The notes: a model not told the origin generated them from the letters alone. Counted from the first letter of the stretch, positions 29,406-32,469 are shown. The stretch: DNA of 60,537 nt from Escherichia coli (GCF_003334255.1 NZ_QOWU01000027.1); one strand, 5' to 3'. Numbers and translations: made by a program.

Positions 29406-30842
29406 TCAGCGTTTGTAACCCCCGCCCAACGCACCAGTGAGTTGAATGGAGGCATCCAGCCACTGCCCTTGCAATAACAGGCCATTGGCCCGCTCACGCA
29501 GCGCGGGGATTCTGGCTTCGCTGACGCGGGAACCAGCAATGATGCCCGCGTTAAAGCGCGCCTGCGCAAGACCTACCACACGCAAGGCATCGCGCTCAAT
29601 TTGCGCCTGATGCTGGTTTTTCTCCGCCAGTGTCTGAACCTGACTGGCTGCCCGCGCCACGTCATTCACCGCTTCAACCACCGCTTTGTTGTAGCTGGCG
29701 ATAGACAAGTTGCTTTCGGCTTTTGCGATATCGAGATTGGCGTTAAGACGACCACTATCGAAAATGGGTAGCGTCAGGCCTGCCGTAACGCCCATTTGCT
29801 GCGCGGAATGACGGAACAGATCGCTTAAGTGCAACGCATCCTGTTGCAGGAAGGCCATCAGGTTGATGTCAGGATAAAATGCCGCTTTTGCCGCATCAAT
29901 GGTGCTTAGCGATGACTCAACGTACCAGTGCGCCGCCTGCAAATCTGCCCGCCGGGCCAGTAAGGAGTACCCCAGTTCATCAGGAAGCTGGCTTGCCACT
30001 TTCGGCAACGCGACCGGTTTAAGCTTCAATGACTTTGTCTGGTTATTTGTAAGTGCGCTTAACCGTGCCTCAATAATTTTCATTTTCCCCGCGACATCGT
30101 TGAGCTGCTGCCGGGTTTTGCTGGCATTAATATCGGTTTCCACACCTTCAACTGAAGAAGTAATCCCGTTCTGATATAGCTGGCGATCGGTCGCGATAAT
30201 GGTGTTCTGCTCTTTTTCTATTTGCTGCAAGACCGTGTTTAACGCCGCCTGGGTTTGCCACTCCCAGTACAGGCGGGCTACGCTGCCAGCCAGCAATTGG
30301 CGGGTTTGCTCGCGTTCCGCCGCCCGTGCTTTAACCGTACCCAGGCGGGCAGTAACCTCCGCCCGATTCTTTCCCCAGATATCGAGATGCCAGCCCGCCG
30401 TTAAGCCAAAAGTACCGTTGGTGTACCACGGGCCGGTCGTACCTGCGGCCGGATCGTTCAGAGCAAACGGCCCCATTAAGCCTTCTGCCGACATTTTTTG
30501 CCGCTCCATATCCGCCGAAAAGTCGATCTGCGGACCATCCTGAGTGGCAACTGCCTTCGCCTGGGCTTCAGCTAGCTGAATGCGCTGTTCAGCCACCTGC
30601 ATATCCGGTGCGTTCTGTAGTGCATTGTTAATTAAGGAAGTGAGTTGATTATCGTGATACTCCAGCCACCATTGGCTGTCTGGCCAACCATTTTTCAGCG
30701 CCGTGGGTAATGCGGTGTCAACTTGTGCAGCGGGCGTTTGCTGGCTTAACGCCTGGCGGGTTTCATGCATAGGCGCACACCCGGCCAGCATCAGTAACAG
30801 CGGAAAACAGGCGATGGCTGGATAAAAGGAATCACGATTCAT
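29406..30842 (-). CDS. mdtQ: MdtQ, OprM/TolC-type outer-membrane efflux lipoprotein; reads as an intact 478-aa frame here
   Basis: ORF track 29406..30932 (-) is one uninterrupted frame; start trimmed to ATG 30842 (MNRDSFYPAIACFPLLLMLAGC, lipobox). Confidence 0.85.
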   Translation of the reverse strand: MNRDSFYPAIACFPLLLMLAGCAPMHETRQALSQQTPAAQVDTALPTALKNGWPDSQWWLEYHDNQLTSLINNALQNAPDMQVAEQRIQLAEAQAKAVATQDGPQIDFSADMERQKMSAEGLMGPFALNDPAAGTTGPWYTNGTFGLTAGWHLDIWGKNRAEVTARLGTVKARAAEREQTRQLLAGSVARLYWEWQTQAALNTVLQQIEKEQNTIIATDRQLYQNGITSSVEGVETDINASKTRQQLNDVAGKMKIIEARLSALTNNQTKSLKLKPVALPKVASQLPDELGYSLLARRADLQAAHWYVESSLSTIDAAKAAFYPDINLMAFLQQDALHLSDLFRHSAQQMGVTAGLTLPIFDSGRLNANLDIAKAESNLSIASYNKAVVEAVNDVARAASQVQTLAEKNQHQAQIERDALRVVGLAQARFNAGIIAGSRVSEARIPALRERANGLLLQGQWLDASIQLTGALGGGYKR

Positions 30843-31065
30843 GGGGGAATAATCAGGTAAGAAAAGGTGCGCGGAGATTACCGTGTGTTGCGATATATTT
30901 TTTAGTTTCGCGTGGCAATACATCAGTGGCAATAAAACGACATATCCAGAAAAATATACACTAAGTGAATGATATCTTCCGATTTATCTTAATCGTTTAT
31001 GGATAACGGCAAAGGGCTTCGTTTTTTCCTATACTTATTCAGCACTCACAAATAAAGGAACGCCA

Positions 31066-31149
31066 ATGAAAATTATACTCTGGGCTGTATTGATTATTTT
31101 CCTGATTGGGCTACTGGTGGTGACTGGCGTATTTAAGATGATATTTTAA
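31066..31149 (+). CDS. yohP: YohP, small membrane protein (27 aa)
   Basis: Not in the ORF track. Manual translation gives MKIILWAVLIIFLIGLLVVTGVFKMIF, with AAGGAA SD upstream and TAA at 31147-31149. Confidence 0.8.
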   Translation: MKIILWAVLIIFLIGLLVVTGVFKMIF

Positions 31150-31249
31150 AATTAATTAATGTCATCAGGTCCGAAAATAACGAGAATATTTCAGTCTCTC
31201 ATCCTGTTGCGCTCCTGTCATGTGCATTGCTTCATATAATCACTGGCGC

Positions 31250-31420
31250 AAGGAGCGCGCAGGGGGCGGCCAATCGCCGCCGCCCCCTGCACCCCCGGGC
31301 TCTGGCGAACAAAATCGCCGCTGCGCGGTGCCCTCGGCTTATCCCTTACGGCTACCGGGTCGGGCGCGAGGTAACATCCCTGTAAAACGCGCCCTCAGCC
31401 CACATCCATGTGGGCTGCCC
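31250..31420. other. GC-rich noncoding element with two perfect palindromes
   Basis: Hairpin 1 at 31260..31289 (CAGGGGGCGGC-CAATCGCC-GCCGCCCCCTG, 11-bp stem). Hairpin 2 at 31396..31417 (CAGCCCACAT-CC-ATGTGGGCTG, 10-bp stem). Lies between yohP and the dusC 3' end. Confidence 0.5.
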
Positions 31421-31521
31421 CGGCCTTCAGGGAACGCCTCGGCAATTTTGACGCCACCAAACAACCGTGCGGCCTATTGATAAAGAGCTAACACATTGTC
31501 AAAAAACATCACTATGGTTTT

Positions 31522-32469
31522 TTAGAGTTTCTCGATATCAATTGCCTGAATAGCCCTTGCAATATCAGGGGAATTATTCAACACCCGAACATGCTGAAAT
31601 AATTCCGTTGCTTCATCGTATTCTTTACGCAAATAACTCAACCACTGTTTAATCCGCGCAACGTGATATAACCCGGTATCGCCCTGCTTTTCCAGACGGG
31701 TATATTTTTGCAGCAAAGCAACCACCTCCGGCCACGGCATTCGCGGTTCGTTATATTTTACCACCCGGCTCAGGTTGGGAATATTGAGCGCCCCGCGACC
31801 AATCATCACTGCGTCGCAGCCGCTGATCGCCATGCATTGTTGCGCGCTCTGCCAGTCCCAGATTTCACCGTTGGCAATCACCGGAATATTCAGCCGCTGG
31901 CGAATATCGCCAATCGCCTGCCAGTCAATATGCTCCGCGCGGTAACCCTGCTCTTTCGTCCGCCCATGCACCACCAGCTCCGTAGCGCCAGCCTGTTGAA
32001 CCGCATCGGCGATTTCAAATTTCTTCTCACCGCTGTCCCAGCCCAGACGCACTTTCACGCTGACGGGCAAATGCGCCGGTACAGCTTCACGCATCGCTTT
32101 TGCACCCTGGTAGATGAGTTCAGGATCTTTGAGTAACGTCGCCCCGCCGCCGCTACCGTTAACCGTTTTCGACGGGCAGCCGCAATTGAGATCCACGCCC
32201 CAGGAACCTAACTCCACCGCACGGGCGGCGTTCTCTGCCAGCCATTGTGGGAACTGACCTAACAACTGCACGCGCACCAGCGTACCAGATGGTGTCCGGC
32301 TGGCGTTTTGTAGCTCAGGGCAAATGCGATGAAAGACTTTTACCGGCAGCAGTTGATCCACCACGCGGACAAACTCGGTGATGCACAGATCGTAGTCGTT
32401 AACTTCGGTCAGCAATTCACGCACCAGAGAGTCAAGCACTCCCTCCATCGGTGCCAGTAACACACGCAT
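31522..32469 (-). CDS. dusC: DusC, tRNA-dihydrouridine synthase C (315 aa)
   Basis: ORF track 31522..32535 (-); start trimmed to ATG 32469 ([13 protein letters not shown]). Confidence 0.9.

Follow-up and report, generated by a model that had tools for sequence, protein, structure and literature searches.

The GC-rich palindromic block between yohP and dusC of Escherichia coli is part of the replication-gap repeat TRIP1c/RRS-dusC and carries a covarying, TwoAYGGAY-like fold

The GC-rich, palindromic block between yohP and dusC in a 60,537-nucleotide stretch of Escherichia coli DNA (NZ_QOWU01000027.1; this whole stretch is called the window below, and positions and strands are those of the window unless stated otherwise) is the middle of the intergenic repeat TRIP1c, the same element as the Replication Risk Sequence (RRS) RRS-dusC. 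It is a known element with an experimental explanation. An earlier note, made from the sequence alone, had listed the block as unexplained, but precisely this element is the subject of three experimental papers and a survey. We find that its minus strand has a multi-hairpin fold of ~280 nt that is kept by compensatory substitutions across Enterobacteriaceae. Taken as a whole, the explanation that we regard as highly probable is that TRIP1c/RRS-dusC folds on the lagging-strand template and causes replication gaps there, with the fold as the proposed unit of selection.

The identity of the block follows from its coordinates and its sequence. The K-12 genome NC_000913.3 is identical to the window in this region (genome coordinate = window + 2,197,916). 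The published description of TRIP1c (Li et al. 2024, PMC10888264) gives a length of 273 bp, a distance of 43 bp downstream from the stop of yohI/dusC and one of 363 bp upstream from the start of yohG/mdtQ. With the dusC stop at 31522 and the mdtQ start at 30842, these distances place the whole repeat unit at 31206–31478, with its folded, G-rich strand on minus. A near-perfect part of 222 bp was named RRS-dusC and RRS-lysO at its two loci and was equated with Rudd's TRIP1 (Pham et al. 2023, 2024; PMC10287960, PMC11194060), a name that goes back to Rudd's 1999 catalogue of intergenic repeats (via the same papers). In our alignment of the dusC and lysO copies of K-12, near-perfect identity extends between CACTGGCGC and GACGCCACC, so that the common block occupies 31240–31461 on the minus strand, with approximate boundaries. 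The 20-mer published as a G-quadruplex (G4) site, GGGGGTGCAGGGGGCGGCGG (sequence from PMC11194060), has an exact and unique match in the window at 31277–31296, minus strand. The published zone of single-stranded DNA (ssDNA) enrichment has its start within the element, at genome position 2229192. Coordinates and sequence thus match the published description exactly, and the block is the known element. The annotation of NC_000913.3 has no feature at any of the three K-12 loci where copies reside (dusC, lysO and putP).

The published experiments define what the element does at replication. Strong binding of RecA and SSB to lagging-strand ssDNA was observed by ssGap-seq from each RRS onward over 1.4–2.5 kb, and it depended on the RRS (Pham et al., PMC10287960). 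The G-rich strand halts Pol I, II and IV in vitro in an orientation-dependent manner, with polymerase stops mapped to the predicted G4 site, and it reduces M13 replication (PMC11194060). RRS is active at any insertion site, deletion of both copies requires a compensating amplification, and the presence of one copy or more is conditionally essential (Pham et al., PMC10287960, PMC11194060); deletion or inversion of both copies alters genome-wide supercoiling (Pham et al.). In single-molecule experiments with the G-rich strand as lagging-strand template, almost every encounter of the replisome with the element left a gap; with the C-rich strand in that place, the proportion was about two thirds (Kusi-Appauh et al. 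2026, bioRxiv 10.64898/2026.06.16.732529). Among bacterial sequences, just one other is reported to cause a programmed gap via a folded G-rich strand, namely the pilE G4 of Neisseria gonorrhoeae. It has no similarity to RRS in sequence or fold, and it differs in being a short canonical G4 that is tied to a small RNA promoter and to pilin recombination, rather than a dispersed repeat.

In the mechanism established by these papers, the replication fork unwinds the region and exposes the G-rich, window minus strand as the lagging-strand template. This strand folds very stably, into what the papers describe as a G4 plus secondary structure, and the folded strand blocks DNA polymerases, leaving the Okazaki fragment unfinished. 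The resulting ssDNA gap of up to 2 kb is bound by SSB and RecA. To this we add that the selected unit would be the fold and not the G4 alone, namely a core of the TwoAYGGAY type with two A-N-G-G-A-Y loops, followed by two 3' hairpins. At 2.229 Mb, between oriC (~3.9 Mb) and dif (~1.6 Mb), the fork heads toward lower coordinates. By textbook replichore geometry, the window minus strand is therefore the lagging-strand template, in agreement with PMC11194060.

The fold was evaluated in two alignments of copies in minus-strand orientation, one containing 60 distinct copies of the core (A4) and the other covering the 3' part with hairpins H3 and H4 (A5). RNAalifold found compensatory changes in 20 of the 35 pairs that it predicted from A4. 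A structure completed by hand to 51 pairs has 92.6% of alignment cells paired, compared to 35–45% when the partners are slid against each other; in 27 of the 51 pairs both partners have changed, and covariation scores 0.274 versus at most 0.071 in the slid controls. In H3 and H4, compensatory changes were found in 10 of 15 pairs (A5). Wobbles read on the minus strand comprise 185 G-U cells and 21 A-C cells. This excess indicates that the window minus strand is the folded one, which is also the strand of the published G4. One pair of the core is G-U in 57 of the 60 copies.

The TwoAYGGAY-like core spans 31303–31456 on the minus strand, as delimited by cmscan and by pair counts on the 60 copies. 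A closing stem composed of P0 (31452–31456 with 31303–31307) and P1 (31443–31450 with 31310–31317) has 13 pairs, seven of them with changes on both sides, and leads into a three-way junction that holds the small hairpin P1.1 (31318–31328, CCGC-GCA-GCGG). Three of the four pairs of P1.1 are compensatory, CCGC/GCGG being replaced by UUGC/GCAA. The stems P2 (31432–31442 with 31332–31344) and P3 (31419–31425 with 31350–31359) add 16 pairs and carry two adjacent hairpins. Hairpin A (31396–31417) has a stem of 9–10 bp and the loop AUGGAU at 31404–31409; 99.3% of its cells are paired and five of nine pairs have compensatory changes. Hairpin B (31363–31393) has an outer stem GGCGCG/CGCGCC, an inner stem AC/GU and the loop AGGGAU at 31376–31381, and its inner closing pair covaries, being G-C in 33 copies and A-U in 26. 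While the stems change, the loop of hairpin A reads C-A-(U/G/A)-G-G-A-(U/A)-G in all copies, and for hairpin B the sequence is C-A-(G/U/A or nothing)-G-G-A-(U/C/A)-G. The invariant loops may point to a sequence-specific partner, which could be CsrA or another protein acting on an RNA copy, or a factor that recognizes folded ssDNA.

Downstream of the core on the same strand lie the two 3' hairpins. H3 (31259–31290; GGCGAUUG) has a perfect 12-bp stem and an 8-nt loop; it covaries across genera and its loop retains GGCG. In Escherichia whittamii and in inverted alleles of E. coli, the 5' arm of H3 is changed from GGGGGCGGC to GGGGGAGGA and the other arm is changed to match. The stem is GUUAAGGGUGC/GCACCCUUAAC in Citrobacter and GCAGAGAGGGC/GCCCUCUUUGC in Pluralibacter, with the GGCG loop retained in both. 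H4 (31209–31258) is formed by the arms 31209–31216 and 31251–31258 (GCGCUCCU/AGGAGCGC) and is followed by AAC; its GCUCC/GGAGC is replaced by GUUCAC/GUGAAC in other genera. A motif CA(C/T)AT(A/G) recurs in several genera ~25 nt beyond H4 (A5 columns ~130–140; window ~31170–31185), which suggests that the conserved unit may reach ~30 nt past the published boundary of TRIP1c. In variant copies of E. whittamii (L118, 8480–8770) and Pseudescherichia vulneris (L025, 3240–3525), an insertion contributes a third hairpin with the loop CAGGGAUG.

The closest known structure is TwoAYGGAY (RF01731; Weinberg et al. 2010), a multi-copy class defined by a long closing stem and two adjacent hairpins with A-Y-G-G-A-Y loops. 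The cmscan match in the window covers 31313–31464 on the minus strand and has 30.9 bits (E = 0.011 in a 901-nt search), below the gathering cut-off of 43, so that the K-12 copy itself is not a TwoAYGGAY member by the curated score. The K-12 lysO copy and the inverted allele score 30.6 and 28.4 bits, and a Citrobacter copy scores 36.4. Homologues in Pluralibacter gergoviae reach 51.9, 47.2 and 46.3 bits, above the cut-off. The Pluralibacter copies align to the K-12 core (E = 3e-12), and they have their 3' hairpins in common with Citrobacter-type copies and with some Escherichia copies.

Individual features of the class were also compared. The long closing stem around two hairpins is present as P0+P1. 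The AUGGAU loop of hairpin A fits the consensus, whereas the AGGGAU loop of K-12 hairpin B has a purine at the pyrimidine position; in other copies this loop is AUGGAU, AAGGAC or A-GGAC. Tandem G-A pairs are absent in K-12, which has U-U and U-A there, and are found in hairpin B of Pluralibacter (C-GA-GGC...GCC-GA-G) and Mangrovibacter, as read by eye from the alignment. The enterobacterial element differs from TwoAYGGAY in having two extra 3' hairpins, one of which is G4-prone. TwoAYGGAY is filed as an RNA without known function, whereas RRS has a demonstrated effect at the DNA level. The alignment originally published for TwoAYGGAY includes at least five copies from Psychromonas ingrahamii whose flanks are conserved, so that TwoAYGGAY also behaves as a dispersed repeat. 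No TwoAYGGAY at the gathering threshold was detected on rescanning five loci labelled Clostridia (L019, L078, L123, L128 and L106). The RRS and TRIP1 papers do not mention TwoAYGGAY, CsrA or hairpins, and the TwoAYGGAY literature that we found does not deal with RRS; the link between them appears to be unreported. In our view, the enterobacterial RRS core may be a divergent branch of the TwoAYGGAY class. A broader proposal, that RRS and TwoAYGGAY form one class in which the strand-specific branched fold with its two GGA loops is selected and the G4 is a lineage-specific addition, is put forward tentatively, with somewhat less than even confidence.

The earlier note had suggested that the block might belong to a repeat family other than REP and had proposed to count its copies; this expectation was borne out. 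In a megablast search the segment was found in all 5426 of 5426 complete E. coli genomes, in a median of three places per genome (range 1–8), and it is conserved in related genomes. K-12 has copies at dusC, lysO and putP, and the window contains no further copy. The copy between aqpZ and lysO, known as RRS-lysO or TRIP1a (aqpZ-ybjE; Li et al. 2024, PMC10888264), is 94% identical by BLAST over 272 bp on the opposite strand (window 31199–31470 against L007 3019–3289). It is the same element, with the same G4 20-mer, hairpins and core fold, and differs from the dusC copy only in its locus and a few substitutions. The two K-12 repeats are nearly identical and mutually inverted, and lie ~650 kb on either side of dif. 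The dusC copy is sense and downstream of dusC, whereas at lysO the copy runs antisense to the genes on either side. The copy between putP and efeU is TRIP1b of the TRIP1 family (TRIP1a–e), a core-deleted derivative that matches in two pieces (L012 1856–1994) with the core absent; it was described as a partial copy at putP-ycdN that has lost 125 bp internally (Li et al. 2024, PMC10888264). According to the same survey, 99% of the E. coli copies are at five fixed loci (Li et al. 2024, PMC10888264).

Outside E. coli, the matches listed include copies in other Escherichia, Klebsiella, Enterobacter, Citrobacter, Pseudescherichia, Pseudocitrobacter, Kluyvera, Pluralibacter and Mangrovibacter. One chromosome of K. 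pneumoniae has copies in 13 places and Enterobacter sp. ENT03 in at least seven, and the host loci differ from genus to genus. In K. pneumoniae, the interval between pcaC and a gene for a mechanosensitive channel holds a tandem pair of near-identical copies (L008 2501–2715 and 2938–3152) that stand 437 bp apart. In Citrobacter (L020, L058, L059 and L097), two diverged copies are arranged back to back with their 5' ends facing. The phage collection yielded no copies. The plasmid collection gave 34 matches; the ones examined carry chromosomal housekeeping genes and several of the records are chromosome-sized, so that they look like mislabelled chromosomal DNA. About half of the matches listed by a pattern scan of genome contigs are chance matches in GC-rich genomes. 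Three contigs of metagenome-assembled genomes, assigned to Desulfacinum (L031), 'Proteobacteria' (L054) and Sporobacter termitidis (L106), carry RRS of the enterobacterial type with 82–94% identity, which probably reflects binning contamination. A JUMPstart element (57.9 bits, above its cut-off) was observed in E. whittamii (L118 10919–10956) ~2 kb from the RRS copy, and is probably unrelated to it.

The allelic state of the element varies among strains, and the yohP-dusC intergenic region as a whole (31157–31530) occurs in two forms. The K-12 arrangement of yohP-dusC is present in 3317 of the 5426 complete genomes and absent from ~39%; most of the remaining genomes match the flanks only, with a span of 779 bp. 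The alternative form contains unrelated filler sequence, and its last dusC codons are changed (951 versus 948 nt). In one strain (NZ_CM184352.1) the yohP-dusC stretch is interrupted by IS1A. The aqpZ-lysO region is K-12-like in 4029 genomes. No empty insertion site at dusC or lysO was found among the alleles examined; the alternatives are either inverted or core-deleted. The lysO allele of UTI89 (L134) is core-deleted, with a junction unlike that of TRIP1b and with the same inverted orientation as in O157:H7. Like the putP-efeU copy (L012), it retains only the 3' hairpins and the 5' tail. A search for repeats revealed a direct repeat beginning with CCCCGG at 31293–31310 and 31418–31435, and the junctions of the core-deleted derivatives (TRIP1b and the UTI89 lysO allele) are at or adjoin CCCCGG direct repeats. 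The TwoAYGGAY-like core has thus been lost independently at least twice, in UTI89 lysO and in K-12 putP-efeU, at or next to CCCCGG/CTGC direct repeats. Across the 60 copies, the neighboring genes are convergent in 19 cases, co-directed in 24 and divergent in two, and in the co-directed gene pairs the folded strand has the sense orientation 13 times and the antisense orientation 11 times. These counts of context and orientation are not independent, because many copies are orthologous.

In its immediate context, the element begins ~43–44 bp past the stop of dusC (31522–32469, minus strand) and ~57 bp past the stop of yohP (31066–31149, plus strand). The interval 31250–31420 singled out by the earlier note lies inside the element but takes in only its middle. 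The high GC content that the note had remarked on is evident, at 0.64–0.72 over 31200–31450 in 100-nt segments compared to 0.33–0.40 in the flanks on both sides. Both of the perfect hairpins it had described exist. The one with a 10-bp stem was as stated (31396–31405/31408–31417, with 2 nt separating the arms), while the stem given as 11 bp has 12 bp (31259–31270/31279–31290, with an 8-nt loop). The absence of a T-tract also holds, with no terminator-like site on either strand in 30950–31700 and none predicted between the dusC stop and the element; the same scan gave no promoter-like site inside the block. RNA folding is far more stable than that of shuffled sequence on both strands (z = -4.4 and -4.9), as is DNA folding, with -79.9 kcal/mol for minus and -73.7 kcal/mol for plus (z about -5.5 for both). 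The block was said not to match REP, and indeed the REP-derived Rfam model naRNA4 gives no match to the element in the window at E <= 10, while it matches nearby REPs in other loci. The comparison with Rfam that the note had proposed yielded TwoAYGGAY alone, below its cut-off. A weak AgvB match (31172–31232, plus strand, 22.9 bits against a cut-off of 56) touches the edge of the element; this and the weak miRNA and snoRNA matches in the region were judged to be noise and rejected. The end of yohP (3') coincides in part with a promoter-like site on the minus strand at 31138–31165 (ATGACA, a 16-nt spacer and TATCAT; 10 of 12 matches), which is probably a chance occurrence, because the number of such sites is not above that in shuffled sequence.

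Several observations weigh against the explanation of TRIP1c/RRS-dusC as a fold on the lagging-strand template. All three alternative dusC alleles examined (L002, L003 and L133), one of them from O157:H7, are inverted relative to yohP and dusC, and the O157:H7 lysO copy (L001) is inverted too, L001 and L133 coming from two different O157:H7 strains. In engineered K-12, inverted RRS gives no RecA/SSB ssDNA peak (Pham et al.). Both directions of the element were also reported by Li et al. (PMC10888264), and a proxy based on GC skew, which is noisy, shows no bias with respect to the direction of replication (20 versus 23). Over covarying stems, CAUGGAUG and CA(N)GGA(Y)G persist as loops, and a simple obstacle needs no fixed loop sequence. 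The G-U pair kept in nearly all copies of the core is more typical of RNA than of DNA. Finally, among 58 distinct copies a G4Hunter score of at least 1.5 is reached by only 29, and the exact 20-mer is present in 14.

The last of these points concerns the relation between the G4 and H3. The published 20-mer overlaps the 5' arm of H3 (31279–31290, minus strand), which holds the second G-run. The 20-mer of K-12 is G4-prone, with a G4Hunter score of 1.84. Its runs have 5, 5, 2 and 2 G, however, and differ from the canonical pattern of four runs of at least three G with loops of 1–7 nt; four runs of at least three G occur in a single copy of the 58. Since H3 is compensated and G4 potential is present in about half of the copies, the hairpin is kept throughout, with the G4 potential confined to some lineages.

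Among other explanations we considered that the element works also or mainly as an RNA, its minus strand being transcribed (in K-12 by read-through from dusC) into a TwoAYGGAY-class structure whose GGA loops bind a CsrA dimer or another protein, which would either be sequestered or tag the host mRNA. We consider this rather unlikely, although several observations agree with it. The TwoAYGGAY matches fall on the folded strand and exceed the cut-off in Pluralibacter, and CsrA binding was previously proposed for TwoAYGGAY. The minus-strand loops ACAUGGAUGU and UUACAGGGAUGU are near the consensus ruACArGGAugu obtained by SELEX for CsrA, with GGA in a hairpin loop as in CsrB, CsrC and RsmZ, and the spacing of the two sites suits a CsrA dimer. 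The variant copies of E. whittamii and P. vulneris add the third hairpin described above, no terminator is predicted to separate dusC from the element, and the conserved G-U pair stands beside a 9:1 wobble excess on the minus strand; G-T wobbles, however, occur in folded ssDNA too. On the other side, the scan detected no promoter or terminator consensus in or beside the element, the folded strand has no bias toward sense orientation, and the K-12 lysO and putP copies are antisense to both neighboring genes. CsrB, CsrC and RsmZ have 9–22 sites, compared to two or three here, and share no sequence homology with the element. In a gene-level supplement table from CsrA crosslinking immunoprecipitation sequencing, whose column headings are unchecked, dusC and ybjE, the flanking genes concerned, are given as 'No' in all four yes/no columns and 'NS' overall; this negative is weak, because reads from repeats map to multiple places and may have been dropped. 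Literature searches on CsrA together with dusC, on yohP together with dusC, and on BoxC, RSA and IRU returned nothing useful. The suggestion of a structured RNA made by the earlier note holds in so far as one strand has a covarying TwoAYGGAY-like fold, but the function that has been tested is that of ssDNA at replication, and the RNA form is putative.

The dispersal of the element could alternatively reflect a selfish or formerly mobile repeat, similar to a miniature inverted-repeat transposable element or spread via an ssDNA intermediate, in which the fold is the target of a mobilizing enzyme and the gaps are a tolerated or co-opted side effect. The variable copy number (1–8 places in E. coli, 13 in K. 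pneumoniae, at least seven in ENT03), the different loci among genera, the tandem and back-to-back pairs, and the two orientations at one locus with unrelated filler separating the element from the genes agree with this view, as do the REP-like gene context and the copies of TwoAYGGAY in P. ingrahamii. This origin is nevertheless improbable: the element ends have no terminal inverted repeats, no target duplication could be seen by eye where element and flanks join, the annotated loci show no transposase-like gene beside the copies, the phage collection has no copies and the plasmid matches examined carry chromosomal housekeeping genes, the E. coli copies are fixed at a few loci with no empty dusC or lysO site among the alleles examined, and at least one copy is conditionally essential. 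On a still less probable reading, the element would serve the 3' ends of the converging transcripts of yohP and dusC, either as a stem-loop barrier to exonucleases or as a terminator that lacks a U-tract, in the way proposed for REP/BIME. This reading would account for the proximity to the dusC and yohP stops, the very stable hairpins on both strands and the preference of the family for gene 3' ends. REP/BIME are likewise intergenic, GC-rich and palindromic, favor gene 3' ends and avoid divergent promoter regions, and both REP/BIME and RRS have been discussed as having a role in genome topology (Pham et al.). However, REP is a ~35-nt palindrome present, with BIME, in hundreds of copies, whereas the element is branched, ~280 nt long and present in few copies per genome. 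No T-tract or terminator-like site was found, and the aqpZ-lysO copy sits beyond a separate aqpZ terminator. A 3'-end function accounts neither for the strand-specific covariation nor for the invariant loops, and the phenotype that has been demonstrated is replication. Finally, the block could encode the Pro/Gly/Arg-rich protein of 86 aa on the plus strand (31220–31480), or be a horizontally acquired remnant. The open reading frame does exist and the flanks are much poorer in GC, but we give this almost no credence. The coding reading, which the earlier note had already held implausible, was rejected on account of 1-nt indels inside the frame in other copies and of substitutions that track base-pairing rather than codons. 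The notion of a horizontally acquired remnant, raised in the same note, fails on the presence of the element in every complete E. coli genome, at fixed loci, and across Enterobacteriaceae, and on its absence from the phage collection.

TRIP1c/RRS-dusC as a folding lagging-strand template therefore remains the preferred explanation, and it has consequences for how these repeats are viewed. The reference annotation of the best-studied bacterium lacks an element by which replication gaps are programmed and chromosome topology is influenced. Natural E. coli, O157:H7 included, carry the element in the orientation that gives no RecA/SSB ssDNA peak when engineered in K-12. If the conserved unit is the covarying ~280-nt fold with invariant GGA loops and not the G4, this could change how RRS is studied, and the fold ties RRS to an Rfam family without assigned function that is found far outside enterobacteria. 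Should the two indeed be one class, the TwoAYGGAY 'RNAs' of Psychromonas, Clostridia and gut metagenomes could be programmed gap elements similar to RRS and, conversely, RRS could have a life as RNA.

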